NCBI GenBank assembly: GCA_973895155.1
Contig: OZ316897.1
Coordinates: forward strand, 5,779,327-5,843,326
Length of the DNA stretch: 64,000 nt
Direction of reading: 5' to 3'
DNA from: Marsupella aquatica
Taxonomy: Eukaryota; Plantae; Marchantiophyta
Shown: positions 1-42,380 of the stretch, piece by piece
How positions within the stretch are numbered: the stretch's first letter is position 1
Layout: each line of letters begins with the position of its first letter
The notes under the pieces: model-generated
Told to the model about the DNA's origin: nothing
What the model saw: only the letters and a program-made list of their open reading frames with translations
Databases searched by the model: none
Program-made: the position numbers and the translations under genes

Positions 1-1290
1 GTCAAGGAGTAATCCGACTCCACAAGCCGTGGTGACCAAGGAGGTAGAACCAGCACCATCCTCCGGCATGAATACGGCAATAGATCCCGCTATCATCACA
101 GGTGGGGGTGGTGTGTCCAAGCCGAACTACTCAGTAATGAGGCCGGTATTCCAGATCCGCCTCTTGAGCAGGCCGGGGAGACCGTAGCCGAGGCTGAGGC
201 CGTAACCGATTCCCGAGCCGATGCCGACGCCGATGGTGGACCCAGTCAGGCCAATGGAGAGTTGACTCAGTCAAGGGCAGGTAATCTGTCAGAGAATGAA
301 CCTACGGCAGTGGCTGAGGAGGAAGCGTTGGGGGCGTCCATTAAGGATCCTCCACCGGTGTCGTGACGGTGCAAGGGCGCCGTTCCTTTTAGGGAGGGAG
401 GACGTGGAGGGAGGAGGCATGAGTGGGCAGGGCGGGCGCTGATCTCCAAGTTTAGGATTAGGATCAGGACCAGGAGCGGCCCTGACACTTAGCTTAGTGG
501 GATTGCGGTTCCACTGGTAGGAGCAACACTTGTGCTCCTGCCTTGCTGTACATAGGTAGATTCGGGCAAGTAGATTACTGTTAGGTAGATTAGGCTTACG
601 ATGCAAAGAATGGCGGATCCACTACCAGGATAAGTACCTGGGTAGCGGGGAGCTCAGGGCCTCTTCTTTAGCAAGTTTTTAGTTTGCACCAGCCGGGCTG
701 GGATCAAGTAGTACGAGAAACTCTCGGTTAGTCATACAGTGACCCTTGTGTATATTCATGTTTCCTCATGCCTAAGAGCTGAATAGAGTTGGCCTCACGG
801 CTTAGTTCGTAGAGCTTGTGTATGAGATGTACTGTTTGTGTGGCAAGTGCATGGTATGACTCAGTCAGAATGAGTCATTTTGCTATTTGTGTGTTGCATT
901 AACTTGTGTGAAGAGTGCCCACATCAACCAGAAGGAAGGAAAGTAAGCAAGGGAGTGAGAGTTGGATGTGTCGAGCTGAGAGAGGTCTTAGCGGCTTAAC
1001 CAAGCCTATTGGGGATCATTCCGGCGGCGGAATCCAAACATACCTAACAAGACGGAGGGGAAGACAGGGGAAGACAGGGGAAGGCCTAGATTAGGCCGGC
1101 TACGTATCTCATGACCCAATGAAGGATCTGTCCAGTATATGTGTGTAAAATGTTAACAGTAGTAGTAGAAGATTAGCAGCGTCCCATGCCGCTAAGCCGC
1201 GGAAACGGCCTCGCCAAGCACCAAAAACCTGCGGGAATCGGCTTGAGCTGGGGGGTTTCTTGGGTTTAGGGAGCCATGGGACGCACCACA
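1..1290 (+). repeat. 3' part of the 5' LTR of element A, including the C-terminal end of the LTR-borne ORF
   Basis: Direct repeat of 10894-12169; ends in CA, 4 nt before the PBS. Confidence 0.95.
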
Positions 1291-1294
1291 TTTT

Positions 1295-1312
1295 TGGCGC
1301 TAGATGGAGGGG
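1295..1312 (+). promoter_or_regulatory. Primer-binding site, probably tRNA-Asn(GUU)
   Basis: TGGCGCTAGATGGAGGGG, 4 nt after the LTR. It matches the complement of the plant tRNA-Asn 3' end (TGGCGCTAGAAGGAGGGG, recalled from memory) with one mismatch. Confidence 0.75.
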
Positions 1313-1359
1313 GCATTTCTTAAGCCGTGAGATATGAAGTTAGAACGGAAGCGTAGGTA

Positions 1360-4352
1360 ATGACTAACCTTACGCCGAGGGAAGAAAGAGTGATTCAACG
1401 GGAGAGAGCTTGACTGCAGCAGCTCGCCGGGTGGCATGATACACAGCGACTGAGAGGGGCAGAAAGAGCTGGTAGCTCCGAAACTGGAAGTGGCGTCGAA
1501 GAAGACATACCTGAAGAAGAGTCGGTAAGGAGAAGTGAGTCTCCAACCGACATGGGGGAACCAGAGGCACGGCCAGACGAGAGGCCAGGGACCAGATTGA
1601 GCCAGCGGTCGCGCATACATTACAAGGCATTTCATGGGAGAGGAGATGAGGATCTGGACGAATGGTTGGATGATTTCGAGGGAACCGCTGCAGCAAATGG
1701 AGAATCGGCCATCAAGATGCAGATTCTTCCCGGCCTGTTCAAGGGTGAGGCTAGGCCTTGGTACAGAGCATTAGATGTGGAAGATCAAGCCATCTGGGAT
1801 ATCTTCAAAACACTCTTTGTTAAGGAGTTTCGACCAATTGGAACTTCAGAACTAGCAGTGCTGAAGTTGGGACGACTTCGGTTCAAGGAGAACAAATCCT
1901 TCAGGAAGTTCTTGCAACGCTTTCAGAAACTGGTAAGACGTACAAAGACCAATGCATCTGAAGGTATGCAACTTCAATGGTTGGTGAATGCTTTGCCACA
2001 GAAGATGAGTTTTGCAATTAGGAAGGAGAACCCGGAGACTTTAGCCGAAGCAATTAAGGATATTCAATTATACATTAATGCAGATATCACAAGCCGGAAG
2101 AAACAGCTTAAGTCTGAGAGTTCCTCATCAGAAGAGGGATCACCCCATAAGAAAAAAGATAAGAAGAAGAAACATTCTAAGAAGTCTAGAAGTGATAAGT
2201 CAAGCTCGGATAGTGGGAGTAGCAAGAGTGAGTCATCTTCTAGTTCTGAAGAAGAAAAAACTACCAAAAGGAAGGGCAGAAGGAGAGGGAAGACGAAAGT
2301 CAAGCTGGAGGCTAAGCCACCAGATAACATCGTAGCCCTTACCGAGCAACTTAAGGCTATCATTGCAGAGGTAAAACCGAAGAAGAAGGTAGTACAGGAG
2401 GATAGCTCTGTATGGTGTGCCTTATGTTATAAAACCGGACACCATAAAGATGTGTGTCCTAAGCTTAATACTAATCATGTTCGGCATGTGGCCGAGATCA
2501 GACCATGTCAGGGAGAAGTAGAGTACTTTTTAGGAGATGCCGCTGATAGTGTTTTCGGCATCAGTGAGACTGGAGCACGAGACCTATTCAACAGACCTGC
2601 ATCTCTATGGTCAGGGTTAAGGAACAATCCAGGAGAGATGTATCCTCGGATTATTCAGAACCCGTCAGTACCTCCTAGGCCGAATGTGCAAAGATTTGCG
2701 GCGTGCTATAATTGTGGTCAACCTGGCCATTTTGCTAGAGAATGCCCGAATGCACGCAAACAGGGTGATGGACAACCAGCTCAGCTATGTATGGGATGCC
2801 GACAGGAAGGTCATATGCTAGGGCAATGTCCTACTTGGTTGGCAGGCCTGGCCGCAAATCATAAACTTTTGCCGGTCAAGATCTTACCGCCAGGTACTAC
2901 CCCCGGAGGAGTTCAAATCAACCACATCGAACTAGGATGGCAAGAGGATGCCGAGGCAGAGTTCGTACCATCTGATGATGAGGCCGAAGCCCTATCAACC
3001 TTCTCAGAGGAGGATTTAGATCATGATTGCTACCGGGTCTCTACTTGATCTACCAGAAGGAAGGAAAGGTGGGATGGGCTGGCCAAAAATAAAGGGAAGG
3101 TTACGGAGGAAAAGATCGACTCTTCGTCAACATCAACAGAAGGAGAAGGGAGGGCTCCGGCAATACAGGTAAGCCATGAGCCCACCAGTGAACCCAATCC
3201 TTCACAAGATAGCGACTTCAATCGAGATCATCCTAAGTTGTTCTACCCCTCTGTTACGACTAGTGTTAAGGAACAACTAAGAGAATTAGAAACCCTGGAG
3301 AATACCGAAGCCATTGCCAAGGATGTAAAACGAGCAAAAGCATTGTTTGCTTCGGAAGACCCAACAGCTGTGGAGACTAGCGTGGCAAAACTGGCCAAAT
3401 CCAAGACGGAGACACCACCAGAGGAGAAGCCGATTGTTCCCTATGACCTGGCTAAAGATGTACTAGAATCTAGAGTCTCGGCAACAGTAGGTCAACTATT
3501 GAAAAATAGCTCGTACTTCCGGAAGCAATTAAGGAAGGCTATTCTCGGCAAGCCGAGATTACCCAAGGTAGTAACCAGATCCGACGTACTAATGATAGAA
3601 GAAGATCAAGGAGCCCCAGCATTACCATTAATGATTCAAGGAGAATTATTACTACGGGTACCCATCGATGGAGGATCAGGGGTATGTATTATGATTGATT
3701 CAACAGCAAAAGGGTGGGGTCTAACACCGGAGATGACTGGAAGAGTGTTGAACATGGCCAATGGATATCAGGTCATTCCCACGGGAGTGTTAACCGGCAT
3801 CAAGACAGAGATAGGAGGTATCTTCTTTAGCATTAACTATGTAGTACTGAAGCCGGTAAATCCTACGTCATTCCGGCTATTGATTGGTAGGCCATGGCTG
3901 TACCTAGCCGAGGTAATAGAAGATTGGGGTAAAAAGCAGTTCACTTTCGAGACCCCCTCTATCACGGTATCCTGGGACACTAAGGATGACCGTAGGAAAA
4001 GCATAAGGGAAGTAGATGGGTACGACAATGGACTGGAGTCAGCCGATGAAGTACGTTGGTTAGAATGCCTCACTGACCTAACCGAAGAAAGTGTCTTTGG
4101 ACCAGAGGTACCCCCAGCGGATTATGGCAAGAACCAATGGAAGGTGACTTGGAAGAAGAAGACGAAGAGGTCGAGGACTGCTTTACAATAGAATCCACCT
4201 TTTTAGCTGCAATTCCGGAGGAAGTAAAGGATGTAGACCAATTGAATGAAACGGCTAAGTGGGGAGCAGTAGCAGGGACAGTGGATTTTCTGCAGGCGTT
4301 GTGGCAGAGCCGGCAGGGTTCACAACGCCATCGATCATCGGCAAGGAATTAA
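1360..4352 (+). pseudogene. gag: gag-protease ORF of element A (capsid region, three CCHC knuckles, aspartic protease)
   Basis: Knuckles CALCYKTGHHKDVC, CYNCGQPGHFAREC and CMGCRQEGHMLGQC; protease motif VPIDGGSG. Private lesions relative to copies C/D: TGA near 1411, TGA at 3046, 1-bp deletion near 4116. Confidence 0.9.
4283..4342 (+). promoter_or_regulatory. Candidate -1 programmed ribosomal frameshift signal between PR and RT
   Basis: G_GAT_TTT in the protease frame, 5-nt spacer, stem GGCGTTGTG (4295-4303) / CACAACGCC (4321-4329). The RT frame is -1 and is closed by TAA at 4256. The signal recurs at 29011-29057 and 62191-62237. Confidence 0.7.
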
Positions 4353-7300
4353 ATACCAAGGGATCGGCATACAAGCCGATTACGAGGGCAGAACAAATTG
4401 AGGCCCTATTAGAAGCCGAGAGAGCACAGCGGCCTGACTCTCAGGAGCAAGAGGTGGATGAGATGGACAGACACAATCCAGAGCCAAGGCAGGAAGGGGA
4501 GCCGACCACCAATTCAAAACCGAATAGACCGGCAAGGGGACAATCTATGGACACCAAGGAAGGGACCGACTCGGCTAGTCCAGCCGAGATTCCAGTTTAT
4601 GGAGGTATGAGATTGGAGAGACTGGAAGCCGAACTGGACCCGAATTTGAAGAAGCAGATTAATATGATCCAAGCACGGCAATATTGGAAGCTCGACTTAG
4701 GAGAGGGAAGAGAACTGAACTTAGGGAGAAACCTAGCACCTGAGCTCGAGAAAGAGATCAGTGACTTATTGATTGAATTTCAGGATGTGTTTGCATGGAG
4801 TCACCAAGATCTAAAGGGAGTAGATCCAACACTAGGGGAACATCGAATTGATCTCATGTTAGGAGCCAAATCATTTCGACAACCAATTCGAAGGATGAAC
4901 CCGAAGTATTCCCTGCTGGTCAAAACAGAAATCGACAAACTAATGGAAGCTGGATTCATCACTCCAGTCCTGCATTCAGACTGGGTGTCTCCAATTGTGA
5001 TAGTTCCCAAGAAAGCTGGACCCGATGGTAAACCCAAGATCCGGGTTTGTCAGGATTACAGGAAGCTGAATGAAGCAACATTAAAAGACCATTTTCCTTT
5101 ACCGTTTACTGATATGGTACTAGACATGGTAGCCAGTCATGAACTATATTCATTCATGGATGGATACTCTGGTTATAACCAAATCAGGATTCGGCAGGAA
5201 GACCAAATCAAGACGGCCTTCATCACGGAATGGGGGATCTATGTCTTCAATCGTATGCCGTTTGGACTCTGCAACGCACCAGCTATGTTTCAACGATTAA
5301 TGGTGAACATTTTTCATGATTACTTGAGAAAGTCATGGAAATCTTCATTGATGACTTTGCAGTATTCGGGAAGGCATCGAAACATGCTAAATACCTCAGG
5401 AAAACCTTCATGAGATGTAGAGAGGTGGGTCTCAAGTTACACCCAGATAAATGTTTCTTTGCAGTAACCGAGGGGGTGCTACTAGGTCACAAGGTATCAA
5501 GGAAGGGCATTGAGATTGACAAAGGTAAGCTAGCAGTATGGCTAGATATCATGCAACCTAAGAACATAAAGGATGTAAGATCCTTCTTGGGATGCATTGG
5601 TTACTATCGCCGGTTCATCAAGGATTTTGCCAAGCTAGCTTTACCATTAACCAACATGCTCAAGGCAGGAGCAGACTTCGAACCCACACCCGAACCAGTC
5701 ACAGCGGTGGTAGAATTGAAGCAGATGTTAGTAGAGGCCCCAGTCATGATAGCACCGGACTGGAACAAAGATTTTCATGTTTTTGTAGATGTCTCGGGCT
5801 TCTGTATCGGCTCAGTACTAAGTCAGTTGGATGAGAAAGGAAGGGACCATCCCATATACTTCGCAAGCCGTCAGCTTGCCGATGCCGAACGGAACTACTC
5901 CACCACAGAGAGAGAAGCATTAGGAGTCATTTATTCTTGTAAAAAGTTTAGGCATTATTTACTAGGATACAAGGTAATCTTTCATACCGATCATGAAAGT
6001 TTGAAGTACCTAGTCAATAAGCCGGACCTTACAGGCAGAGTAGCAAGATGGATTTTGCTATTACAGGAGTTTGACTATGAGCTGAGGATCAAGCCGGGAA
6101 AGTTACACGCCAATGCCGACTTCTTTTCAAGGATCACAGGTAAACCTGCCACGGATTGCATCGATGATCGATTCCCCGACGAGGAGCTATTCGTTGTGGA
6201 AATAGCTGATACATGGTACCCTGAGATTTTACAATTTCTCAGCACTTCCAGATTACAGCCAAGATTAAGCCGAGAGCAAGCCGCAGTCTTTGTGCAGAAG
6301 GTCAGACAGTATCAGTGCATTAAAGGCATACTGCACAAGCATGGAATCAACGGCACGATTCAAAGGTGTTTGGAAAAGGGAGAGGTAAAACGAGTCCTAC
6401 AGGCCATGCATGGAGAGGAGGCCGGAGGACATTTTGCCCCAGTAACCACGTCTAAGAAGATATTAAATGCCGGTTACTGGTGGCCCACCTTGCACAAGGA
6501 TGTCTATCAGTTTATCAAACAATGCGATCCTTGTCAACGAGCGGGAGGACCAAGGGCGTCCACCAGACATCCACTGCACCCTATTCTACCTCTGGCACCA
6601 TTCGAGAAGTGGGGTATTGATTACTTTGGACCTCTGAAACCACTGACCCACCCTCGACGGAACAAGTACATAATCCTGGCTACGGATTATGCAACTAAAT
6701 GGGTAGAGGCCAGACCAACAACGAAGGATGATGCAATTACTACGGCTAGATTCATGTATGAGCAGATCTTCACCAGGTATGGAGCACCCCTAGAATTAGT
6801 TAGTGATAGAGGAACCCATTTTTTGAATGATATAATTAGTCGTTTAAATGAGCAGTATTTAGTTAAACATAGGCCTACTACTCCCTACCATCCAAAGGCA
6901 AATGGGTTGACAGAACGAGCAAACGGAATTATAGGAAAGATATTGAACAAGACAGTAGCTCAGAACAAACTCGATTGGGATGATAAATTGTTTGCTGCTG
7001 TTTTTGCTTACAATCTTGCCTATAAATCCACTACCGGTCATACACCCTTCTTCTTAACCTTTGGACAAGAAGCCCTGGTACCCATGCAACTTGAGATACC
7101 GACATTTCAAGTTACAATTGAGGAAAGAGCCTCAGCGGAGGAGAGCCTAAAGGAGCGAGAATATAGGTTAGAAGCTTTAGAGGAGGTGAGAATGATTTCA
7201 GCCGAGAGAGTAGAATATAGACAGAATATCATGAAGCAGCAGTATGATAAAAAGTTGAAAGTAGTTAGTATTCACACCGGTGATCTTGTGCTACTTTATG

Positions 7301-7475
7301 ACAGTAGGTATAGTAGGTTTCCAGGAAAGCTTTACACTCGCTGGTTAGGACCCTTTAGAGTAACCATGATGTTCCCCAATGGCTCCGTACAATTGGCCAA
7401 CATTACGGAAGAGGTATATCCAGTTCGCATCCATTATGACCGCCTCAAGAAATACTATATGGACGAAGCTGAAGT

Positions 7476-7512
7476 TGTTCGCGAGGACGCTTCACAATTA
7501 AGTGGGGAGCTA
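7476..7512 (+). promoter_or_regulatory. Polypurine tract and conserved pre-LTR cassette
   Basis: TGTTCGCGAGGACGCTTCACAATTAAGTGGGGAGCTA directly before the LTR start TGTGATGCC; nearly identical in family B (54693-54738). Confidence 0.8.
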
Positions 7513-10500
7513 TGTGATGCCTAGACAGGAATCACTCGGCCAGTTAAGTGGGTAAAGCAGGAAGGCACCCTAGGAACACCTTAGTATAGGGACAAAACAA
7601 GGAAAATATAAACCATTAGGGGCAACCATGGAACCCGGGCCGAGGCCGGAGGTAAGGACGCTGAGGGTGAAAACTCGATTAGGGTTAGGGCGCGTTAAGT
7701 GTCGGCGGCTAGGAAGGATCAACGGGAAGAAGGACCGGCAGAGGAGAGGGGTAAGGAGCGCTTGCAGGAGATGGTGGCTCATTTGCGAGCACGAACTAGG
7801 CAGACGACTACGGGAGGCCAACTACTGTCAACTGCTTAGGCAAGCACTCGGGGAGAGAGTAGATACCAACGATCGACCTAAGGAGGGTATGAGCAACGTC
7901 AATCAAGCGGCACATTTCTGGGGATGCCTGTTCGAACGGGCAACTGAGTACATCAAGACTTACGAGGACGAGGAATCAGAAAGGGCAGCTCGAGAACGGC
8001 AGGAGCTCGCTCGATTGTGGGAGCTGCAGAAGACGGCTTTCTTAGGAGGCGAACTCATCAAGGACGAGTTCCTGTGGACGCCTACCTCCAATCAACTCGA
8101 CGATCTTCTGTTTTGCAAAGACAGCGTCGTCGGCATCCGAGAGGCCATCAAGAACTGCAACGACATACACTAGGAATTAAAGGGTAGCACGGAAAGGTGG
8201 ACCCAGGCAACGGTGCTAGGAGAAACCTCCACGGCAGCAGAGATGAAGAGGAAGGGAGCCGTCAACGATGAAGCCACCCCGGCAAAAAGAACGAGGTCGG
8301 CGGCACCAAAGAAGCCAGCCGAGCAGCAGAGCAGGAGGCAGGGAGAAGCCGAAGAGGAGGAGGTCGATCCCATCAAGGCCATTCCAACCAAGGATGACAC
8401 CTGGAAGGGCTGGGCGGCAACCCTACCGGTGGAGGTGCAACTACATTTTGCACGGGAGGAGGATGCATGCTTTACGGCAATGCAGACCAAGAAGTATCAA
8501 GGCTTCATGGCCGGATCCGGCTTAGAGGCCTTTGTAAGATTACCATGGCTGAAGCCGGAGGTACCGGAGTCAGACCTATTAGAATTCGTGGGGTCATGGG
8601 AACCCGAGACCAATTGCACGAGGATATATGGGAAGGATTTCTATCTTACTCCCAAGGTAATTGCCGAAGTGTTTGGCTTGCCGATAGGCAATAAGACCAA
8701 AGTTGATACCAGGAAGACCTTGCCTGACAAGGAGTTCCGGTCGTTCCCCGGGCCATCAACGAAGAATGGCTTCTTCCGGAACACCTGCACCAACCCGCAC
8801 ATAGGAGAGATGATCGACTTCTTGCGGGTGACCATGCATTGTAACTTGCCGAGGGCAGAGATCGGCAAGGCACAGGTCTATCTGGCAGAAAGGCCAGACC
8901 CAAGCCGGGACTACAACGGGTACCTCCTCAACCAATTGAAGAAGATCTTAAAGGAGGAGCAGCAGGTAATCGGCATGGGGAGCGTGTCGCGGCTTGGCTA
9001 TCACATGCCGCTGTTGTGCCGGTATGCCAGAGGTCAGACTTTTGCCCCAGTACTTCCCCTACAGGTAAGGGCACCCGAGGAAGCTCCAACGCCGAGGCCG
9101 TTGGCTGAGAAGCCTCAACCACCTGTTAGCCCTACGATCGAGCAGGTGTTTAGGCCTAGGAAGGAGGACTTGCCGATGCAGCAACCAGGCATGCAGAGTC
9201 TGCTGAAACTACTGGAGAAAGAAAAGAAATCGGCATCGGCAACAACAACGGCAACGGCAACAATGCAGGACACTACTACAGAGGTAGGCCTACATCGGCT
9301 CACAAGAGAAAACCCCTTTGTTGGAGACAAGGAGAGAATCAGGCCGGAATCCAAGCCAGGTGTTCGAATGTATGTGGGAATCTCAAGCTCCGAATCTGAG
9401 GCAGAATTGCCTGAAGCTCCTACCGACAAAGAGGAGAGGGAGAAGCCGGACGTCCAAGAAGTAGAGGAGGCAGTGGAGGACTGCAGCCATGATAATTCTG
9501 GCTATGGGTCGGACCATCACGTTCCAGGAGTAAGGACCTGTGGCCGGTTTGTCCCCACACTTCCAAGGGTAGTGCGAGGGGACCCCAACCAGCAGAGTAG
9601 CCCTGAGTCTCCCCCACCAGATGTTGCTCCCCCGAGCTTTGACGGCATAAAACAGACGGTGCAAGAATTTCAGGAGCGAATCAGGCAGGAAGAGGAGGCA
9701 GCCCTGGCTAGGGAAAAGGATTTACCAGGAGGAGATTGGCCGGAGGACATCAGGCGGCTAGCCAAAAAAGGAAGCAAACCTCTAGCCACGATTGAAGAGA
9801 TCCGCAAGACGGCTTGGGAGCAGAGGCCGCGATGGGCGATGCCGATCACTTCTACTTACTCCACCTACGCTAAGAATAGAGCCATGGAGTATGGTGAGAT
9901 GTGTGGGGAACTTGCGCTCGGCATCTTTGGAGAGGAGTTGGAGGTAGGACCCTTTTTCCATAGGGAGCAGTTGGAGAAGCACCAATTAGAAGAAGCGGTG
10001 GCTTTAGAGAGAAGCAAGAAGGACGAGGTCATTCGGCGGCTTAGGAGGATGGAAGCCGAGATTGAAGATCTAAGGGCGGCCAAGAAATCCCAAGATGAAC
10101 TGCGGATTAAACGGCATGAGCTGAACATCATGCAGGGGCAGTTGGACACCGCGCAGGCTGATAATCAGAATATCAAGGATAAACTGACTCAGATGCAGGG
10201 AGAGTTGGCCGACACGATCAAAGAGAGGGAGAAGTGGAAGCAAGAGCTGAAGAATACAGAGGAGGCCCACATAACAGCCAACAGCCGGGCCATGGCGGAG
10301 ACCCAAAGAAAGGAATGGGCGTTGAAGGGGGAGCTCGAGAAAATCCGCGGAGCCCTTGAGCAGAAGGAGGCCGAGTTAGGGAAATCTTATCAAGGGATTA
10401 TGGCGCTGCAGCAGGAGCTTGCGTCCTTGACGGCCAGCTTCAAGGCCGACCTAAGGGAGAAGGACGAGATGCTCGATCAGACTTACGCCAAGATGAACCA

Positions 10501-12169
10501 GATGGAGTCTGTCATCATTGCAGAGCTCGACAAGGAGCTAAGAGCAACCCGGGAGGAGAGGACTACCTTGAAACAAGAATGGGAGGAAGCCCAGAAGGAA
10601 CTAGAGGCACGCAAGGACCTGGATGAGACCCAGGAGGAGTTGGAGGAAATCACGAGGAAGATGGAGAACCTCCAGCGGCGGGCCGACAACCAAACGGAGC
10701 GGCTGAAGAAACAAGCCGCAGCATTTAAGTGCTTGTCTTCATCAGGCCCAACTCCAATTGGGGCAACCAAGTTACCAGGAGTGGTACTGGCCGAAGAAAA
10801 AGCCGCGCCACCTGCACCAGTGCCGGAAGTAAGTGGGAAGGGGAAGGGACCAGCTGCCGAACCAGAAAAGAAGAAAAAGCGGAAACCTTCAGGGTCAAGG
10901 AGTAATCCGACTCCACAAGCCGTGGTGACCAAGGAGGTAGAACCAGCACCATCCTCCGGCATGAATACGGCAATAGATCCCGCTATCATCACAGGTGGGG
11001 GTGGTGCGGCCCAAGCCGAACTACTCAGTAATGAGGCCGGTATTCCAGATCCGCCTCTTGAGCAGGCCGGGGAGACCGTAGCCAAGGCTGAGGCCGTAAC
11101 CGATTCCCGAGCCGATGCCGACGCTGATGGTGGACCCAGTCAGGCCGATGGAGAGTTGACTCAGTCAAGGGCAGGTAATCTGTCAGAGAATGAACCTACG
11201 GCAGTGGCTGAGGAGGAAGCGTTGGGGGCGTCCATTAAGGATCCTCCACCGGTGTCGTGACGGTGCAAGGGCGCCGTTCCTTTTAGGGAGGGAGGAGGCG
11301 TGAGTGGGCAGGGCGGGCGCTGATCTCCAAGTTTAGGATTAGGATCAGGACCAGGAGCGGCCCTGACACTTAGCTTAGTGGGATTGCGGTTCCACTGGTA
11401 GGAGCAACACTTGTGCTCCTGCCTTGCTGTACATAGGTAGATTCGGGCAAGTAGATTACTGTTAGGTAGATTAGGCTTACGATGCAAAGAATGGCAGATC
11501 CACTACCAGGATAAGTCCCTGGGCAGCGGGGAGCTCAGGGCCTCTTCTTTAGCAAGTTTTTAGTTTGCACCAGCCGGGCTAGGATCAAGTAGTACGAGAA
11601 GCTCTCGGTTAGTCATACAGTGACCCTTGTGTATATTCATGTTTCCTCATGCCTAAGAGCTGAATAGAGTTGGCCTCACGGCTTAGTTCGCAGAGCTTGT
11701 GTATGAGATGTACTGTTTGTATGGCAAGTGCATGGTATGACTCAGTCAGAATGAGTCATTTTGCTATTTGTGTGTTGCATTAACTTGTGTGAAGAGTGCC
11801 CACATCAACCAGAAGGAAGGAAAGTAAGCAGGGGAGTGAGAGTTGGATGTGTCGAGCTGAGAGAGGTCTTAGCGGCTTAACCAAGCCTATTGGGGATCAT
11901 TCCGGCGGCGGAATCCAAACATACCTAACAAGACGGAGGGGAAGACAGGGGAAGACAGGGGAAGGCCTAGATTAGGCCAGCTACGTATCTCATGACCCGA
12001 TGAAGGATCTGTCCAGTATATGTGTGTAAAATGTTAACAGTAGTAGTAGAAGGTTAGCAGCGTCCCATGCCGCTAAGCCGCAGAAACGGCCTCGCCAAGT
12101 ACGAAACCTGCGGGAATCGGCTTGAGCTGGGGGGTTTCTTGGGTTTAGGGAGCCATGGGACGCACCACA
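7513..12169 (+). repeat. 3' LTR of element A (4657 bp, protein-coding)
   Basis: TGTGATGCC...GCACCACA; same boundaries as the TSD-flanked solo LTR at 37717-42375. Confidence 0.93.
7628..11260 (+). CDS. LTR-encoded protein of family A (N-domain, basic patch, PMD-like domain, long coiled coil); one premature stop at 8171 in this copy
   Basis: The 181-aa and 1015-aa ORFs are in the same frame, and the TAG at 8171 is TGG in copies C, D and the solo LTR. Consensus is 1210 aa from ATG 7628 or 1123 aa from ATG 7889. Motif YLTPKVIAEVFGLPIG resembles the plant mobile domain. Confidence 0.85.
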
Positions 12170-12189
12170 ACGACGTCAATGTTTACGTC

Positions 12190-13527: not shown

Positions 13528-14328
13528 TCATGGATCCATATCATCTACAATTACTGAAGCCATCAAACCCTTCCTCCGTCGTGGGAAGATGGGAATGACG
13601 ATGGACCATCCTCTCATAGTGTGCATCGGAACCATAATACACTGATCCACCTGGCTAGGAAATACTATAGTGTCACTAACCTCAGTCCCGGATGGTGCTA
13701 CACGAGTCGTGTCTACCCGATAGAACCCACACTCATCTTTCACCATGGTGGCTCTATGTGGAGGTGACATGATGGATTTGTGCCACCGCACCTCTAACAC
13801 AATAGTAGTAAATGACCCAAAGTGAACGTCTAAAATATCCAATATAGTGCCACAATAGGGAATCTCAACATCACCTGGGTCTGTCAACATGAACACTCCT
13901 GAGTTACATGTACTCTTCTTCATGTGATCTGTCCTCCAAGTGCGAAAGTGGTGCCCTGACTCATACATGTGTGTATGGGTCGTTGCCCACAACCCTGGTC
14001 CCCTAATGATGTTCTGTACATCAATGGGAATGGATAAGGGTCCATGCTCTGCAAGGAGCCTATCCATGCGCTCCAATGCCCATACGCAAAATAATGCATA
14101 CCGTCGTGCAACTATCGGTTGCTGCTCCAAGAATGCACTGCAAAAAATGTATGAATCCATGAGAATATTGCGACCTCATCCACAGAAGTGCTCCTTGAAC
14201 CCACTCTAACTTCTACACACATAGAATGTAGAACAACGTCTACTGTTAGATTAACATATATATAGAGTTGCATATATGTACCTATGCAACTCCCTCCACT
14301 GAGACATCTCTGGGCGATTTCCCAACAC
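13528..14328 (-). pseudogene. CACTA transposase (TnpD/Tnp2) C-terminal fragment, DUF4216-like
   Basis: HFRT...STCNSGV...YCGTILDILDVHFGSFTTIVLEVRW...KDECGFYRVD...IVFPSQVDQ...GWSIV follows the DUF4216 pattern; cut upstream by the LINE. Confidence 0.8.
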
Positions 14329-14462: not shown

Positions 14463-17400
14463 CTATGTCCTCAAAGAAACTATGGACCTAGAGAGCCCTG
14501 AAAGATTTTCCAAACCTATTCTCCTTTCCCTATCCACCGCAAAGATATATCTTCCAAGTTGCTGAGGGGGCAGACCAAACAATGCATACAAATCTTTCAC
14601 CAAGATTTGAGATGCCATCCTAACACCCTCATAAAACTTGCAAGCAATGAATACATGATATTCATTCTCTATACTAGAGCTATCACATAGTTGACAAACC
14701 CTCTTTTTCCTGTCAATATCCTTCCATCTCCCTTGTTCTACTTCAAGGTGGTGTGAGCTTAGTCTATACTGAGCAATAAGTTGTCTAAGTTGTACTGAGA
14801 TAGTGCTAGATAAGTATTCTTGTTCTCGATATTTCTTCATGGGGTTCACATCTCTCATGTAGTATTGTTGCCGTGGGCTAGGTTCATGCCAAAGTTTGTG
14901 CAAAGCCTTTTGCTCAAGTTTTGCTCTTAGCTTGGTTGGGTGTGTTGGCCATTCATGTTCAGGAAAATCCCAAGCATGGGCCCATCTGCACACATCTGCA
15001 TACCACCCTGTAGCTGAAGATGAGCGCAAGGCATGAAAAGGAAATCTGTTTTCCTCCAACTCTCTTACACGCATGATGTATTTGAGTGTGTGGAAGAGTG
15101 CCTCCACCTCCAAAGGAAACAAGCCTGCCTCTGCAAGTGTAAGTGCATATGGGGTTTGTGACTTGATCCCAAGCTCCATCTCAAGAAATAGCTTTTGCAG
15201 CCCCTCAATCTGTTGCCACCCAGATTTAGACACACCTGCTCCCCAAATTGGTGCTCCATAAAGAATGACTGGTTTCACCAAAGCTCCAAAGAGATGTTTC
15301 CTTAACCTCCAAGTGTGTAGACCAGCTCTTTTGCATTTGTTCATGAATGCATAAAAAGCTCTGTACCCATTGGCAGCCCTAGATTTTACACATGAGGCCC
15401 AACTCAAGTTTTGAGAGAACTCCACCCCAAGGTATTTGTAGGTCCTCACAAATTCCACCAGATTCCCTTGGAAGTAGAGCTCTGGATTTTGTCGTGTGCC
15501 AATGCCCAAACACTTGGTCTTCTTGAGGTTGACTACCATCCCTGTTGCTTGACAAAACTCCTCCAAGGCATTGAGATGTCTTTGCAAAGCTTCTTGAGCA
15601 TGAGCAAGTAGGACCACATCATCTGCAAATATAAGAAGTTGGAGGACAAACCTACCCAATTGAGTGCCAACTCCACCATGCTCCTCCAAAATGTTGTGTA
15701 GCTGATCAATGAAGATGCCAAAGAGAGTTGGTGAGAGAGGACAACCTTGGATCACCCCAAGAGTGCTCCAGATTTCTTCAGAGGTTTCCTTTGAAAGTTT
15801 GATGTGCACTTCTTGGTACAATTTAGAAACAGCCAACCTGAGCTCTTCAGGCACTTCCAACTCCACCATCCTATCCCAAAGCTTGGATCGGGAAACTTTG
15901 TCAAAGGCCTTGGAGAAGTCCACAAACAAGCAAAATAATGGTTTATGTGGAGATTTGGCCTTTTCACACAACACCCTCAAGCAGAGAATGTGATCCATAG
16001 TGCTGAATTCTCTCCTAAAACCTGCTTGTGAAGGTGCCCTTTTCATCTCACTCTCCAACCAAGAGCTTAATCTGGCTTCAAGTAGTCCTCCCAAAACTTT
16101 AGCAAAAGTATTGCCTACCATGATGGTTCTGTAGTTGTGCACATCGTCCTTGTTGCCTGCCTTGAAGATAGGCACCACTCTTCTGGTCATCCAAGCTTTA
16201 GGTAAACCTAAAGCCATTGCTTGATTCAGCTCATGCACCAAGTTTGTTAGTAAAGAGGGTCCTCCCCACAAAAGAAGCTCCAAGTTCAGGCCCAACAGAT
16301 CTTTAGCTTTCCCATGTTGCATGTGGGAAAGATGCACCTTCACCTCCCTCTCTGTAAACTGAATGGTGTCCCCAAGGGGCAAAGGCATGCCACTAGCATC
16401 TGGAAAGAAATACAAGGATGTGACATAGGTTACCAGGTCCTGGTGATCCAAGGGGGGAGTAGTCTTGCCTGATTGCATTCTCTCCCAAAAACGTTTTGGA
16501 TGTTTGATGAACTCCTCACATAGTGATTGTTGATGACTCTTCAAGAAGCACCTCTTCTTGTGTTTGATGAAGTTCTTGTACATAGTGAATGCCAAAAATC
16601 TCTTTTCCCCTGAATGTGATCTTGCTTGCATCCTTGCTCTAGCACAATCCTCGTCAAACCAAGCCTTCATGTTTTGCTTTCTAGGGGGTTTGGTGGAGAA
16701 AGTAGAGGCTGCTGCTTGTGCTATGACTTCTGAGAGCTCAATCTGATCATCCAGGGTATGGAGAAGATGTTTAAAGTTGGCTTTGAAGATGACTTCTCTA
16801 TCAGGGTCTAGAAACAGAGGTTTGGGTACTGGCTTTCTATGCACTTTGTTTGGGATTGTGGTCAGGTCAAGATGGAACAACAAAGGCAAGTGTGAAGACT
16901 CTGGTTGTTGATCAAGTATTTGAAAGTCAACCACTCTAGTGGCAGAGGTAGGTGAGGCAAGAAGGTAATCAATGGTACTACATCCTTGTTTAGATCTAAA
17001 AGTGTAACCAGATGATTGGGGAAATCTCTCAAGCCCATTCAATATTCTTAGATTACAAGAAGCTCCCAAATGCAAAAAGTGACGTGTCATGTCATTTGTT
17101 CTGGTGTCAAGAGCCTCTCTCACCCAAGGTATCTCTTCACTACATGATGACCAAGGTAAAGTTCCTAAGTCCTCACTTTCAGTAAATTGTTCATTAGATA
17201 CCCTAGCATTAAAGTCCCCCACTATCCATGTCTCCCCTAGTGGTGATATATCATGAATGACTTGGATTAACCTATGAAATGGATAATGTGCATCAGCAAT
17301 TCCCATCTTATAGACATTCATATTAAGGGGAGCAAAGTAGGTGACAATCAGAAATGATGGAGTACCTCTGGTATGAAGTCTCACCACCATGAACTGCTTG

Positions 17401-17666
17401 CTGGGATCTTCATGTTCAATAGAGGTGATGTGTTGAAGTTGATTCTTGGTGTAGACAGCAATGCCTCCAAACCCTCTTCCCCGTGTGGTCTTCTTCTCAT
17501 TGAAGATGGATTGTATGCAAGTAAAGCCTTTAATGCTAGGTAGAGCATTTCCCTCATATTCCCAAGTCTCCGTGAAAAGCAAGATGTCAAAATTCTCAAA
17601 CAAAGGTTCCCCTCCAATTGCTGTTTCTATGGAAAGTCCTGAAACATTCCATGCCATGACTCTCAA
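14463..17666 (-). CDS. LINE ORF2: AP endonuclease, reverse transcriptase, C-terminal CCHC-type motif (1067 aa)
   Basis: EN motifs MAWNVSG, FTETW, VGDFNA, TIDY, SSHLP; RT motifs NYRTI, QAGFR, FVDFSKAFD, GVIQGCPLSP, FADD, YKYLG; C-terminal CQLC...EYHVFIAC. Confidence 0.95.
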   Translation of the reverse strand: MRVMAWNVSGLSIETAIGGEPLFENFDILLFTETWEYEGNALPSIKGFTCIQSIFNEKKTTRGRGFGGIAVYTKNQLQHITSIEHEDPSKQFMVVRLHTRGTPSFLIVTYFAPLNMNVYKMGIADAHYPFHRLIQVIHDISPLGETWIVGDFNARVSNEQFTESEDLGTLPWSSCSEEIPWVREALDTRTNDMTRHFLHLGASCNLRILNGLERFPQSSGYTFRSKQGCSTIDYLLASPTSATRVVDFQILDQQPESSHLPLLFHLDLTTIPNKVHRKPVPKPLFLDPDREVIFKANFKHLLHTLDDQIELSEVIAQAAASTFSTKPPRKQNMKAWFDEDCARARMQARSHSGEKRFLAFTMYKNFIKHKKRCFLKSHQQSLCEEFIKHPKRFWERMQSGKTTPPLDHQDLVTYVTSLYFFPDASGMPLPLGDTIQFTEREVKVHLSHMQHGKAKDLLGLNLELLLWGGPSLLTNLVHELNQAMALGLPKAWMTRRVVPIFKAGNKDDVHNYRTIMVGNTFAKVLGGLLEARLSSWLESEMKRAPSQAGFRREFSTMDHILCLRVLCEKAKSPHKPLFCLFVDFSKAFDKVSRSKLWDRMVELEVPEELRLAVSKLYQEVHIKLSKETSEEIWSTLGVIQGCPLSPTLFGIFIDQLHNILEEHGGVGTQLGRFVLQLLIFADDVVLLAHAQEALQRHLNALEEFCQATGMVVNLKKTKCLGIGTRQNPELYFQGNLVEFVRTYKYLGVEFSQNLSWASCVKSRAANGYRAFYAFMNKCKRAGLHTWRLRKHLFGALVKPVILYGAPIWGAGVSKSGWQQIEGLQKLFLEMELGIKSQTPYALTLAEAGLFPLEVEALFHTLKYIMRVRELEENRFPFHALRSSSATGWYADVCRWAHAWDFPEHEWPTHPTKLRAKLEQKALHKLWHEPSPRQQYYMRDVNPMKKYREQEYLSSTISVQLRQLIAQYRLSSHHLEVEQGRWKDIDRKKRVCQLCDSSSIENEYHVFIACKFYEGVRMASQILVKDLYALFGLPPQQLGRYIFAVDRERRIGLENLSGLSRSIVSLRT

Positions 17667-17678
17667 GGTCCCAATCCA

Positions 17679-18452
17679 TCATTTAGAAACAACTCTCTTC
17701 TTATTGGTAACAACAGCTTGTCCATTGCGCAAGTAAGCTACCAATCCTTGGTCTTTGGCTACCCTCACCTTCTCAAGCTCAATTTTCCTTGCTTGGACTT
17801 GTGTGGGAGTCAGATCATCATCCAACCAAATCCTTAGCCCTTTAAGCATGCTCCTGTTAGCCATCACTCTAGCTTTCTCGGATTCAGCTGCAAACTTCAC
17901 CAAGATTGGACGTGGAAGGTCCCCCTTCTTTTGCCCAATCCTATATGCTTGCAAAATGATAGGGTCATGCACTTTCATCTGAGATTGGAAGAATGAAATT
18001 GCTACCTTCTTGGTGTCTTCCTTCTCCTCCTCAACAAGGCCTGATATTTTGCAGTTGCTGACTCTTGCATGCTGGTTCTTGTGTTCTTCTTCTAGTGCTC
18101 TCCTCTCCTCCTCCTTGGCTTGGACAAATTCCATATGTGATTGTTTTGCAGCCTGTGCAAAGGTTTTGAGCTTCTCCTCAATCTCCCCTACAGCCTCATG
18201 TATCACTGATTTCTCTAGGCACATACTCTTCTCCATGTCTCCAAAACACGATGCAAGCAATGAGAGTTGCTTACCATTCTCCTGAGTTTGAGATCGAAGA
18301 TCACTAATCAACCTCTTTTGCTTGACATTCTCATTCTTTAGCTCCGTCACCTCCTTGCTGAGCGTGGTAATCTCAATTGCGGAGTTTTCAGCCACAACTA
18401 AGATTTTCTCAAGCAAAGCCTTGAGATGGGCAATCTCCTCCGTTGCCATCAC
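17679..18452 (-). CDS. LINE ORF1 (coiled coil plus RRM-like region, 257 aa)
   Basis: Heptad-rich N-terminal half; ISGLVE...AYRIG...PRPILVKF...IWLDDDLT; ends 12 nt before ORF2. Confidence 0.85.
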   Translation of the reverse strand: MMATEEIAHLKALLEKILVVAENSAIEITTLSKEVTELKNENVKQKRLISDLRSQTQENGKQLSLLASCFGDMEKSMCLEKSVIHEAVGEIEEKLKTFAQAAKQSHMEFVQAKEEERRALEEEHKNQHARVSNCKISGLVEEEKEDTKKVAISFFQSQMKVHDPIILQAYRIGQKKGDLPRPILVKFAAESEKARVMANRSMLKGLRIWLDDDLTPTQVQARKIELEKVRVAKDQGLVAYLRNGQAVVTNKKRVVSK

Positions 18453-18514
18453 AAAGCTGAAACTGTTGTTAGAATGTACTCTTAGATGACAAATAGAAAT
18501 TGGGAGCAGTAGAG

Positions 18515-19256
18515 GATGTCAGTTGCAGCTCTACCTTTGCCAGTGATACACTCTCGCTGTTTGCAACACTCTGCCAAAATCTGAGCTCAAACCGCAGCCG
18601 ATTGCCCTTCCAACTCGAAGTGAAATTTCGCCCCAAGCTCAGAATCCCGAAACTGGACACGTAGCAGATCGTGCATGCTAAAGTGCATACCAAACGATGT
18701 CGGTTGCAGCTCTAACTTTGCCAATGATACATTCTCGCTGTTTCCAATGCTCTGGCAAAGTCTGAGCTTAAACCATAGCCAATTTCCCTTCCAACTCGAA
18801 GTGAAATTTTGCCCCAAGCTCAGAATTGCGAAACTGGAGACGTAACAGATCGTGCATGCTAAAGTGCATATCAAACAATGTCGGTTGCAGCTCTAACTTT
18901 GCCAGTGATACATTCTTGCTGTTTCCAATGCTCTGGCAAAATCTGAGCTCAAATCGCAGCCGATTGCCCTTCCAACTCGAAGTGAAATTTCACCCCGAGC
19001 TCAGAATCGCGAAACTAGAGACGTAGCAGATTGCGCATGCTAAAGTGCATACCAAACGATGTCGGTTGCAGCTCTAACTTTGCCAATGATACATTCTCGC
19101 TGTTTCCAATGCTCTGGCAAAGTCTGAGCTTAAACCGCAGCCGATTGCCCTTCCAACTCGAAGTGAAATTTCGCCCCAAGCTCAGAATCCCAAAACTGGA
19201 CACGTAGTAGATCGTGCATGCTAAAGTGCATACCAAACGATGTCGGTTGCAGCTCT
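18515..19256. repeat. Tandem array, 181-bp unit, about 4.1 copies
   Basis: Units start at 18515, 18696, 18877, 19058 and 19239 (GATGTCGGTTGCAGCTC). Confidence 0.95.
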
Positions 19257-20760: not shown

Positions 20761-21175
20761 ATCCCCTATGATCAAATTTACAAAGGCCCCCACAACATAT
20801 TAAACCCCAAGCATAAACTTATCCCACTACGTTAACCAAAATAACGTCCATCCACACGACGTTCTTCTAAAATTAATGTCATTTTTTAGGTTATGGGGAG
20901 GTTGCTGAATTTAGTTTACGTCATAATGTACGACATACTTAATAAGTTAACGTCGTTTGGTAAGACGTAATTATGTGTAACGTCGCCACTAAACCCTACA
21001 CCCCTGGTTAACGTTGTGATTAATGACGTTAAATTAGGGTAACGGCGGGTCTCCAAGGTTCATGGGCTACGGCTATTTTCCTTTAACAAAACATCAGGAA
21101 GTGACTCAAATGTGACTCACATTCAACATTCAACACTTCCCCTCTCCCCCTCTCGACCTCCTATCTTAACAGTGA

Positions 21176-25681: not shown

Positions 25682-26037
25682 TGTGGTGCGTCCCATGGCT
25701 CCCCAAACCCAAGAAAACCCCCTTGCTCAAGCCGATTCCCGTAGGTTTCATCCTCAGCGAGGCCATTTCTGCGGCTTAGCGGCATGGGATGCTGCTAACT
25801 CTCCTTCTACTACTATTAACATTTTACCCACATATACTGGACAGATCCTTCATCGGGTCATGAGATACTTAGCCGGCCTATTCTAGGCCTTCCCTTGTAT
25901 TCCTCTCCTGGTCTTCCATTAGGTATGTTTGGATTCCCCCGCCGAAATGATCCCCAATTGGCTTGGTTAAGCCGCTAAGACCTCTCTCAGCTCGACACAT
26001 CCAACTCTCACTCCCTTGCTACTTCCCTTCATTGATG
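25682..26037 (-). repeat. Inverted 356-bp terminal fragment of a family A (C-type) LTR
   Basis: Begins TGTGGTGCGTCCC; carries the ATGAAGGGAAGTAGCAAGG variant seen near 42972; joins the PBS remnant of C at GATG. Confidence 0.9.
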
Positions 26038-42375: not shown

Positions 42376-42380
42376 GCGTC

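Follow-up and report, generated by a model that had tools for sequence, protein, structure and literature searches.

A Ty3/gypsy retrotransposon of the liverwort Marsupella aquatica carries a 1,210-codon gene under purifying selection inside its long terminal repeat

The DNA analysed here is a 64-kb stretch of Marsupella aquatica contig OZ316897.1, referred to below as the window. It holds a retrotransposon, element A, whose 3' LTR contains a long gene in the sense orientation. The following features were assigned to element A:

1-1290, plus strand: remnant of the 5' LTR, comprising its final 1,290 bp with the last 117 gene codons (13-366) and the non-coding tail; ends in GCACCACA
1291-7512, plus strand: internal region with Pfam matches to Retrotrans_gag, zf-CCHC, RVT_1, RT_RNaseH, Integrase_H2C2 and rve
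About 1295-1307, plus strand: TGG-type primer-binding-like site
1414-3048, plus strand: gag
3049-4191, plus strand: protease region, assigned by position; no Pfam match
4259-5413, plus strand: RT
5320-7524, plus strand: RNase H and integrase
7500-7512, plus strand: polypurine tract (PPT) AAGTGGGGAG followed by CTA, in the last integrase codons and adjoining the LTR start
7513-12169, plus strand: 3' LTR of 4,657 bp, TGTGATGCC...GCACCACA
7628-11260, plus strand: LTR-borne gene of 1,210 codons with one in-frame stop at 8171-8173
8381-9052, plus strand: conserved domain of the gene product with a predicted VANC21-like fold (AF2 pLDDT 80.7, pTM 0.76)
9959-10735, plus strand: predicted single long helix of coiled-coil type, about 259 residues (AF2 single-sequence model, H37-295, pLDDT mostly 84-95)
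11261-12169, plus strand: non-coding tail of the LTR, which probably houses promoter, R and U5; 11634-11733 is its best-conserved block
12170-12174, plus strand: ACGAC, flank of the 3' LTR and half of a presumed TSD whose partner lies beyond the window

The boundaries of the LTR were defined by its repeated copies. Positions 1-1290 matched 10894-12169 with 97.2% identity over 1,291 columns in a self-BLAST search, and with 98.4% identity over 1,275 aligned bases, plus 16 gap columns, in a MAFFT alignment. The whole unit recurred on the minus strand, where 42375-37713 matched 7513-12172 with 97.5% identity over 4,677 columns; its length of 4,657 bp in element A compares with 4,659 bp for this solo copy (37717-42375). 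Both units start with TGTGATGCC and end with GCACCACA, which form an imperfect 8-bp inverted terminal repeat with ends of the TG..CA type. The initial annotation had placed the LTR start right after the integrase and the PPT, and this junction was reproduced at 7512/7513: the LTR directly abuts AAGTGGGGAGCTA (7500-7512) within the last integrase codons, and the pol stop codon (7522-7524) falls inside the LTR. The end of the 5' LTR at 1290 is followed by TTTT and then by TGGCGCTAGATGG. The PPT/LTR junction is common to element A, an older subfamily (D) and a second family (C), and the last 50 nt before the LTR are 96% identical between A and D.

At exactly 7512/7513, contigs of four public runs switched to unlike flanks. 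Loose contig ends before this junction were found in run X1 (two contigs), X2 (four contigs, agreement 0.51) and X6 (one contig, 106 nt), and two records of X5 begin at the junction with 29 and 86 unmatched letters. The summed word depth, a rough measure, was about 2-5 times as high in the LTR as in the internal part in X1 and X2. The 5' LTR of element A begins outside the window, and no complete 5' LTR occurs within its 64 kb. The computed full length of element A is 2 x 4,657 + 6,222 = 15,536 bp with an LTR share of 60%, in line with the earlier estimate of about 15.5 kb and about 60%. The pol of element A is split across frames, making it a broken copy.

Further copies of these elements were found in the window:

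37717-42375, minus strand: solo LTR of family A, 4,659 bp, with GCGTC at 37712-37716 and 42376-42380; whole gene with two in-frame stops
34170-37345, plus strand: solo LTR of family C, 3,176 bp, TGTGACGCC...GACGTGACA, with the TSD AAGGG at 34165-34169 and 37346-37350; broken family-C gene
30789-34169, plus strand: 3' LTR of the older subfamily D, first segment only; internal part of D at 26034-30788; gene copy with several in-frame stops
51608-54701, minus strand: start of a family-C LTR directly after the family-C integrase (54669-56054, minus strand); uninterrupted 863-codon gene from 54235 down to 51644
56034-59006, minus strand: 3' LTR of element B, 98% like A, with internal part 59007-64000; about 1.6 kb missing from within the gene

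The perfect 5-bp TSD reported for the solo 4.66-kb unit was indeed present as GCGTC on both sides, and the suggested search for further TSD-flanked solo units yielded a second ORF-bearing one, from another family (34170-37345, AAGGG). TSDs were thus demonstrated on two solo LTRs, and no TSD of a full element is visible in the window. The host sequence split by the family-A solo LTR is itself an older LTR, and its uninterrupted paralogue is continuous at about 11232-11240, giving a readable empty site. The 3' LTR of subfamily D resumes at 37346-37716 and 42376-43319, beyond the two nested solo LTRs. The 3' end of the family-C LTR at 51608-54701 was looked for and not found.

Element A showed the Ty3/gypsy pol order (protease-RT-RNase H-integrase) together with a gag carrying a zinc knuckle; the Pfam matches occurred in order on 1414-7524, with the protease placed by position. 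Its terminal features were direct repeats, TG..CA ends, a PBS-like site and a PPT, accompanied by TSDs on the two solo LTRs. The 4.66-kb repeat is confirmed as a true LTR of a Ty3/gypsy retrotransposon. A single RNase H region was detected (residues 125-251 of 5320-7524), with none after rve. PMC13468544 names a liverwort branch of Tat without an additional RNase H 'Tat Z2'; the single RNase H agrees with membership in this branch and does not establish it. The closest named pol relatives were from liverworts, namely Calypogeia fissa (63-65% identity along part of the query sequence), Riccia sorocarpa (about 43-53%) and Marchantia polymorpha (45%). The ORF list contained no ORF between the PBS and gag of element A, and hhalign, a weak test with a single template, showed no relation of the domain of the LTR-borne gene to a Transposase_32-bearing Vicia protein.

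The frame of the LTR-borne gene runs in the sense direction from 7574 to 11260, with its ATG at 7628, and fills 78% of the LTR. This bears out the earlier placement of a long sense ORF inside the LTR, and the predicted ORF end was likewise found in the 5' LTR at the window start. That remnant sits behind a 13-bp indel, and the solo family-A copy has an altered C-terminal end in addition to its two stops, leaving no intact one among the four family-A gene copies in the window. The solo copy lacks the stop at 8171-8173, and one letter of this codon differs in nearly all contigs of four runs. The only uninterrupted gene copy in the window is that of family C (51644-54235).

The coding constraint on the gene was estimated from several pairs of copies. 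Between A and D, dN/dS was 0.27, 0.19 and 0.20 over 598, 202 and 245 codons, as against 0.8-2.1 in two off-frames used as controls; the same comparison gave 0.11 for gag, 0.15 for RT and 0.08 for integrase. Between the 3' LTR of A and the solo copy, dN/dS was 0.26 (32 synonymous and 29 non-synonymous changes over 1,204 codons), and the family-C gene gave 0.28 over 860 codons when compared with the family-C copy nested in D. The selection test suggested by the initial annotation therefore returned values far below 1 (0.19-0.28), and the LTR-borne gene is maintained by purifying selection. The gene-in-LTR layout is also present in family C, whose integrase is 61% identical to that of A; the two genes share 29% identity in a domain of about 185 aa (E 4e-20).

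The position of the gene relative to U3, R and U5 was assessed from the non-coding parts of the LTR. Only 115 bp of LTR stand before the gene, and with 82% identity between A and D they are conserved less than any other non-coding part. The tail is 92% identical between A and D, against a dS of 0.36-0.45 in the ORF, and contains the repeats GTAGATT (three copies at 11437-11472) and AGGGGAAGAC (2.8 copies at 11937-11964). No conserved canonical TATA box or AATAAA was seen by eye in the tail, and a search for tRNA genes that could supply the priming tRNA found none. The gene lies downstream of the PPT. It is likely located in U3 because the plus-strand primer site lies at the very end of pol; this placement is based on analogy and on the conservation of the tail.

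The protein matched no Pfam family. HMMER retrieved 17 relatives among 1.84 billion representatives, all mapping to the domain encoded by 8381-9052, and all of the named ones were from one liverwort. When the domain model was compared with 48,161 chains by VIA-align, VANC21 was the sole chain with Z>=5 (Z 8.7, 207 residues, rmsd 3.9), and the next best chain had a Z of 2.1. VANC21 was also the only one of 139 Foldseek candidates at Z>=2 (Z 8.9, 209 residues, rmsd 3.8), with a Foldseek E value of 0.22 and a probability of 0.77. This match is moderate, at 7-8% sequence identity, and indicates a shared fold rather than a function. The matched part of VANC21 is its DNA-bound region (chain residues 287-551; crystal structures 9lnj and 9lnk), so the domain is predicted to share the fold of that region, as a unique match in the PDB set. 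Atlas leads for the domain were DUF1985 (0.83) and PMD (0.82, a cluster with PMD in 18% of its members). PMD (PF10536) gave no sequence match to the ORF, the lone domain or, at E<=10, any of 20 domain sequences, and DUF1985 (PF09331) gave none among the 20 domain sequences at this threshold. The helix region showed weak matches to coiled-coil families in the Pfam search. The layout of a domain followed by a C-terminal coiled coil in a Ty3/gypsy element corresponds to the PMD-CC type. By eye, no transmembrane or signal features were evident in the translation, and lysine/arginine clusters were seen, which we take to be of the nuclear-signal type. The gene product is predicted, on modelled structure, to be a DNA-binding protein of the VANC/PMD-like type that has a long coiled coil and would act on the chromatin of its own element.

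Coding sequences in LTRs are familiar from retroviruses. MMTV sag lies in U3, and nef of HIV/SIV and bel/bet of foamy viruses overlap U3; these ORFs measure about 0.3-1 kb in LTRs of about 0.6-1.7 kb. As in these viruses, the liverwort gene lies downstream of the PPT and is hence duplicated in both LTRs, and if the U3 placement holds it would likewise be carried once, at the 3' end of the genomic RNA. In contrast to them, its carrier is a plant retrotransposon lacking env, and its 3.6 kb take up 78% of a 4.66-kb LTR. The literature search found no retrotransposon described with an LTR-borne gene of such size.

Accessory genes of plant Ty3/gypsy elements also offer parallels. The relevant parts of PMC4408406 and PMC7264820 describe the extra ORFs of Tat, Ogre, Retand and Athila elements as internal, either ahead of gag or in the stretch from pol to the 3' LTR, and often antisense; they report no eORF for moss Tat-like elements or lineages I-II. 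In seed-plant Tat elements, PMD-CC and Tr28-CC extra ORFs combine a domain with a coiled coil, according to the same part of PMC4408406. The gene found here resembles such eORFs in being an accessory gene of a non-chromodomain Ty3/gypsy element and in encoding a transposon-type domain with a coiled coil behind it. It likewise occurs in most copies, and its conservation is close to that of the remaining genes of the element. Unlike those internal eORFs, it lies wholly within the LTR, giving two genes per element and one per solo LTR, and unlike PMD-CC eORFs it does not match the PMD Pfam model. The view of the initial annotation that an accessory gene was absorbed into the LTR presupposes a direction of evolution. 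Ogre and other giant plant LTRs span 1.9-6.5 kb, and those of Ogre are treated as long non-coding repeats in the part of PMC6431247 that deals with them. The LTR length of the present element falls in a similar range and most of its bulk is likewise LTR, whereas the extra ORFs of Ogre are internal.

According to PMC10398659 and PMC5735166, VANC proteins attach to non-coding regions of the transposons that encode them and oppose silencing. A structural resemblance of PMD-C to the DUF1985 domain of VANC, and PMD-A encoded by retrotransposons, are noted in part of a preprint (bioRxiv 10.1101/2024.09.27.615353). Like VANC of Arabidopsis VANDAL elements, the present protein is transposon-encoded, has a matching predicted fold and comes with short repeated motifs in the non-coding part of its carrier. 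It differs in its 7-8% identity, the lack of a DUF1985 match and an added helix of about 260 residues, and its carrier is a liverwort LTR retrotransposon rather than a flowering-plant MULE (Mutator-like) DNA transposon. VANC factors are characterised by sequence-specific binding to the non-coding repeats of their carrier and by loss of its DNA methylation, activities that the present protein might share.

Several other readings of the locus were weighed. The real LTR might be just the tail of about 0.9 kb, with the gene as an internal ORF in the env position and the long repeats arising from tandem or recombinant arrays. A 14-nt polypurine run (about 11285-11298) followed by TG just past the gene stop, and the absence of a full 5' LTR from the window, would suit this proposal. 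It is nevertheless close to refuted and very improbable: two TSD-flanked units from two families begin exactly at TGTGAYGCC after pol with the gene included, the 5' repeat covers the 400 bp ahead of that polypurine run and so enters the gene, the partner of 7513 in the terminal inverted repeat is 12169 and not about 11301, and the flanks change at 7512/7513 in contigs of four runs. Hardly any more credible is a decaying transduced host remnant or a chance open frame without function for the element. The four broken family-A copies, the absence of a Pfam family and the very few database relatives speak for it, but dN/dS was 0.19-0.28 in three independent comparisons with off-frames near or above 1, the frame was kept in two families whose domains share 29% identity, and AF2 folded the domain with confidence. 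Placement of the gene in a giant U5 (or R) is unlikely, if less so. Transcription would then begin no more than ~100 bp into the LTR; the gene, like Ogre ORF1, would form the first ORF of the genomic RNA, with the PBS downstream, and each LTR, solo ones included, would be a self-contained transcription unit. A TATAAA-like word at about 7606, roughly 20 bp before the ATG, and the mere 115 bp of LTR ahead of the gene fit such an arrangement. This word is not kept in subfamily D (TATGAA), however, and is too near the ATG for a start upstream of it, and the first 115 nt are less conserved than the tail. To our knowledge, the minus-strand strong-stop DNA of about 4.5 kb that a giant U5 needs is without precedent, which also counts against it.

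The nature of the protein leaves more room for disagreement. A structural or tethering factor for integration guidance, particle assembly or movement, in place of a DNA-binding anti-silencer, is a possibility of some substance though on balance doubtful. Scaffold and envelope-like proteins often contain long coiled coils, proteins of one fold may differ in function, and the roles of plant extra ORFs are given as unknown in the pertinent parts of PMC7264820 and PMC4408406. Against such a role, the sole solved fold resembling the domain is that of a DNA-bound transposon factor, and the translation lacks evident transmembrane or signal features. The lysine/arginine clusters, presumably nuclear signals, also argue against it.

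We consider it probable that the locus represents a true Ty3/gypsy LTR that wholly contains a selected 1,210-codon gene, likely in U3, with a predicted VANC/PMD-like DNA-binding product. Promoter, R and U5 would then reside in the last ~900 bp of the LTR, and the genomic RNA would read R-U5-PBS-gag-pol-PPT-[gene]-R, with the gene in the env position on the RNA. Reverse transcription would copy the gene to both DNA ends because the PPT lies upstream of it and not downstream, and LTR-LTR recombination would leave one whole gene copy per solo LTR. Expression of the gene would require a subgenomic RNA, either spliced or internally started. The protein might enter the nucleus, oligomerise through its helix and bind short motifs in the LTRs of its family, where it may work against silencing or benefit the family in some other way, comparable to the effect of VANC on VANDAL transposons. 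In a bolder version, which we regard as rather unlikely, each LTR would encode a VANC-like sequence-specific anti-silencer of its own motifs, and thousands of solo LTRs would form a dispersed multigene family protecting the family in trans, as an independent retrotransposon-side counterpart of the VANDAL strategy and the first mostly protein-coding LTR.

LTRs are usually viewed as non-coding control regions, are masked by annotation pipelines and, as solo LTRs, are counted as dead remnants. Here, the LTRs of at least two families enclose a selected 3.6-kb gene, each insertion doubles the gene dosage, and the gene survives the element in every solo LTR. The case illustrates how a shift of the PPT relative to an accessory gene alters the architecture of a retroelement. 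A genome in which this family is extremely abundant could contain one protein in a very large number of hidden copies. If the VANC-like fold reflects function, an anti-silencing strategy so far known solely from DNA transposons of Arabidopsis would also be used by retrotransposons of an early-diverging land-plant lineage.

Comparison of the window with itself showed related Ty3/gypsy elements nested in one another. Elements A and B are copies of one family, D is an older subfamily of A, and C represents a second family.

Ty3/gypsy features of the window
Window start to 12169, forward: element A, comprising the 5' LTR end, internal part and 3' LTR
1-1290, forward: last 1,290 bp of the A 5' LTR, from self-comparison; the upstream rest and the ACGAC predicted in front of it lie beyond the window
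1291-7512, forward: A internal part, 6,222 bp, from self-comparison
7513-12169, forward: A 3' LTR, 4,657 bp, from self-comparison
26034-30788: internal part of subfamily D, older, 83-89% like A
34170-37345: family-C solo LTR inside D, 3,176 bp, with TG..CA ends and AAGGG on both sides
56054 down to 51608, reverse: family C, integrase followed by LTR start, first of two occurrences
64000 down to 56034, reverse: element B, 98% like A, its 3' LTR lacking about 1.6 kb

The internal part of A encodes a gag with a zinc knuckle, RT, one RNase H and integrase, assigned by Pfam and arranged in gypsy order; its pol is split over frames, and this copy is therefore broken. Among named proteins, those closest to pol come from liverworts, namely Calypogeia fissa (63-65% across part of the query), Riccia sorocarpa and Marchantia polymorpha, which makes a liverwort the probable host. 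The 3' LTR of D lies in three pieces, split by two nested insertions, one of which is the second family-C occurrence. Within the window D has neither a 5' LTR nor a primer site, and an inverted LTR-tail fragment (25682-26030) abuts its truncated 5' end at 26034.

The window also holds a non-LTR retrotransposon (14463-18518, reverse). Its endonuclease-RT ORF (Exo_endo_phos and RVT_1) is 1,071 codons long and uninterrupted, and upstream of it stands a 279-codon ORF in which coiled-coil-like sequence is abundant. Beside the element, a 181-bp unit is repeated in tandem about 4.6 times (18516-19358). A second non-LTR endonuclease fragment is located at 24482-25384 (reverse; Exo_endo_phos, E 2.5e-18). 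Two reverse-strand ORFs of 215 and 313 codons (13528-14175 and 19130-20071) gave no Pfam match, and at 20184-20799 both strands carry overlapping low-complexity frames in which His, Arg, Asp and Gly abound. At 43748-44310 there is a satellite-like array whose repeat unit measures about 34/68 bp; its inverted partner (45430-45619) is about 1.3 kb away.

The 4.66-kb unit is an LTR, as established by its start, its end, a solo copy, the contigs of public sequencing runs and their depth. As the initial annotation had proposed, the LTR starts right after the integrase and polypurine tract (PPT): its first bases, TGTGATGCC, lie immediately 3' of AAGTGGGGAGCTA, the PPT within the final integrase codons, and the pol stop codon (7522-7524) is already inside the repeat. 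The LTR end, GCACCACA, was found again at 1290, where TTTT and a TGG-type primer site come next; a search of the window for tRNA genes found none. The two LTR ends form an imperfect 8-bp inverted repeat. The same unit also occurs alone with a perfect 5-bp TSD, in agreement with the earlier observation, as a 4,659-bp solo copy (37717-42375, reverse) with GCGTC on either side; it interrupts an older LTR whose paralogue is uninterrupted across the site.

Contigs of four public runs, carrying four organism labels, switch to unlike sequence exactly at 7512/7513. This break was seen in two contigs of run X1, in four contigs of X2 whose upstream letters agree at only 0.51, in one contig of X6 with 106 foreign letters, and in X5 as two records that begin there. 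Other run contigs match as far as the pol end and TGTGA, after which they run on into a family-C-type LTR. In X1 and X2, the LTR had about 2-5 times the summed word depth, a rough measure, of the internal part. In X5, depth reached 18,000-41,000 summed over about 40 bp at 7483-7522, against about 70-220 in most neighbouring bins; the junction of pol end, PPT and LTR start probably recurs in many other families of that organism that are far more abundant.

The sense ORF noted earlier does lie inside the LTR. One stop (8171-8173) is all that interrupts its frame between 7574 and 11260; counted from the ATG at 7628, the ORF spans 1,210 codons, or 78% of the LTR. This stop is private to the 3' LTR copy of A; the solo copy has a sense codon at the position, and in nearly all contigs of the four runs the codon differs by one letter. 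No intact copy of the family-A gene is present in the window, as the solo copy carries two other stops, B a deletion and the 5' fragment a 13-bp indel. The dN/dS on the ORF, proposed as a check in the initial annotation, was far below 1. Between A and D it was 0.27, 0.19 and 0.20 over 598, 202 and 245 codons (range 0.19-0.27), as against 0.8-2.1 in the two wrong frames, with relaxation limited to the last 123 codons (0.60). The corresponding values for gag, RT and integrase were 0.11, 0.15 and 0.08. Between the 3' LTR of A and the solo copy the ratio was 0.26 (32 synonymous and 29 non-synonymous changes), indicating that much of the difference between copies arose in active lineages. The unit is thus very probably a true LTR carrying a selected gene. 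The LTR-gene frame of D is already open before the pol stop and overlaps pol by 23 nt (30778-30800), so a fusion of pol and the gene by frameshifting is possible there; the feature is not conserved in A, where a stop at 7571-7573 closes the frame.

Family C has the same layout. Its junction matches that of A, with AAGCAGGGAGCTA followed by TGTGACGCC, and an uninterrupted 863-codon ORF runs downstream of it from 54235 down to 51644 (reverse). The C and A proteins have a domain of about 185 residues in common (29% identity, E 4e-20), and in C, as in A, a coiled-coil-like part follows the domain. The C copy inside D is the second ORF-bearing solo LTR in the window, and its comparison with the other C copy gave a dN/dS of 0.28 over 860 codons (1.0-1.27 off-frame). 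Since the A and C integrases are only 61% identical, the gene-in-LTR layout is old and stable rather than an accident of a single family. Three consecutive forward ORFs of 291, 363 and 230 codons (46453-49540), without Pfam match, may be an unclassified mobile element or a gene beside the family-C LTR end.

Reverse transcription of LTR elements places a copy of the sequence between the PPT and the end of R at each end of the DNA. Because the PPT (7500-7512) lies upstream of the LTR gene, the gene is doubled with each insertion and persists in solo LTRs. Its place is probably U3; on the element RNA it would occupy the env position, and the promoter, R and U5 would fall in the last ~900 bp of the LTR. 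Between A and D, the non-coding tail (11261-12169) is 92% identical, with 98 identities in the 100 bp of 11634-11733; identity falls to just 82% in the first 115 bp of the LTR, and the synonymous divergence of the gene is 0.36-0.45. Transcription could instead start near 7600, and the LTR gene would then be the first ORF, within a giant U5, but this arrangement appears improbable. Inspection of the tail by eye revealed neither a conserved TATAAA nor a conserved AATAAA. Among the 15 joints listed out of 166 from the four runs, none has GT..AG ends; the contigs of these runs are of unspecified kind and uninformative on splicing. Just past the stop of the gene, a 14-nt polypurine run (11285-11298) is followed by TG and might act as a second plus-strand primer site or be the ancestral one; as the sequence after it shows no inverted-repeat pairing to the LTR end, the idea of a shifted PPT was demoted to a lead.

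The protein has few relatives. Pfam searches with the ORF, its parts and 20 domain sequences, up to E<=10, returned nothing beyond weak coiled-coil families. An HMMER scan of 1.84 billion representatives, open to proteins of any length, yielded 17 proteins at E<=0.001; of these, four reached <=1e-10 and one <=1e-30. All 17 align to residues 23-327 of a 1,028-residue piece. A word-indexed search with this piece, covering proteins of near lengths only, gave no match, and a domain-profile search returned only P0137, already among the known relatives. Three of the ten relative clusters examined were named, all as Calypogeia fissa 'unnamed protein product', the rest being from assemblies and metagenomes; the liverwort relatives carry the accessions CAM6082161.1, CAM6090539.1 and CAM6101870.1. 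The sole PDB sequence match, ribosomal protein bL9 (E 0.82), was taken as chance. A relation to Transposase_32 was not supported by hhalign (probability 0.2%, on the RT part), a weak test using one Vicia protein. A metagenome scan yielded six loci with matches of 20-45 residues, which were judged chance, since similarity to gag, pol or a further ORF turned up by tblastn at none of the six.

The AlphaFold model of the domain (8381-9052), built from a 20-sequence alignment, had a pLDDT of 80.7 and a pTM of 0.76. Foldseek returned no significant match, its top row being DNA-bound VANC21, the anti-silencing factor of the VANDAL21 transposon (E 0.22). In VIA-align, VANC21 was the sole candidate among 139 with Z>=2 (Z 8.9, 209 residues, rmsd 3.8), and an independent scan of 48,161 chains gave it a Z of 8.7 against 2.1 for the runner-up. 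A protein-language-model atlas offered weak leads to DUF1985 (0.83) and plant mobile domain (PMD; 0.82) clusters. Downstream, 9959-10735 is predicted to form a single helix of about 259 residues, and basic clusters of nuclear-signal type were seen by eye in the translation. Passages of published work state that VANC proteins carry DUF1985 (PMC5735166), and those of a preprint that PMD-C structurally resembles the DUF1985 domain of VANC and that retrotransposons encode PMD-A (10.1101/2024.09.27.615353). Extra ORFs termed 'PMD-CC' and 'Tr28-CC' are reported from seed-plant Tat elements, and none from moss Tat-like elements, in the relevant section of PMC4408406. Given the fold match, the helix and this literature, the LTR-gene protein is most simply read as a very divergent member of the transposon-domain-plus-coiled-coil kind, with a predicted fold, not sequence, in common.

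Retroviral ORFs that overlap U3 include MMTV sag, nef and bel/bet, all much smaller than this LTR gene. In the sections concerned, reviews place the extra ORFs of plant LTR elements in the internal region (PMC7264820, PMC11963269), and those of the former contain no wording that locates such ORFs in the LTR. A review of giant transposons, in its pertinent part, calls long terminal repeats non-coding and puts the length of Ogre LTRs at 1.9-6.5 kb (PMC6431247), and the Retrosat2 ORF0 is described as upstream of gag-pol, not in the LTR (PMC3485330, in the passage concerned). A full-text search of open-access main texts returned no case of an LTR-located ORF in a retrotransposon, consistent with the initial annotation, whose author knew of no such architecture at this scale. 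The element type and the protein type are already familiar. What is new, on these searches and models, is where the gene lies and how large it is, that solo LTRs carry it, that a liverwort lineage has it, and that its product has a predicted VANC-like fold.

VANC proteins undo silencing by binding the non-coding regions of their own VANDAL transposons, according to passages in PMC10398659 and PMC5735166. By analogy, a VANC-like DNA-binding or anti-silencing role of the LTR-gene protein can be suggested tentatively. In the tail, GTAGATT occurs three times (11437-11472), and also three times as GTAGATTA in subfamily D, and AGGGGAAGAC is repeated 2.8 times (11937-11964); both repeats are candidate protein-binding sites. 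As the fold analogy would have it, the protein would enter the nucleus, oligomerise via its helix and bind motifs in its own LTRs, an effect that would favour the family, possibly through countering silencing.
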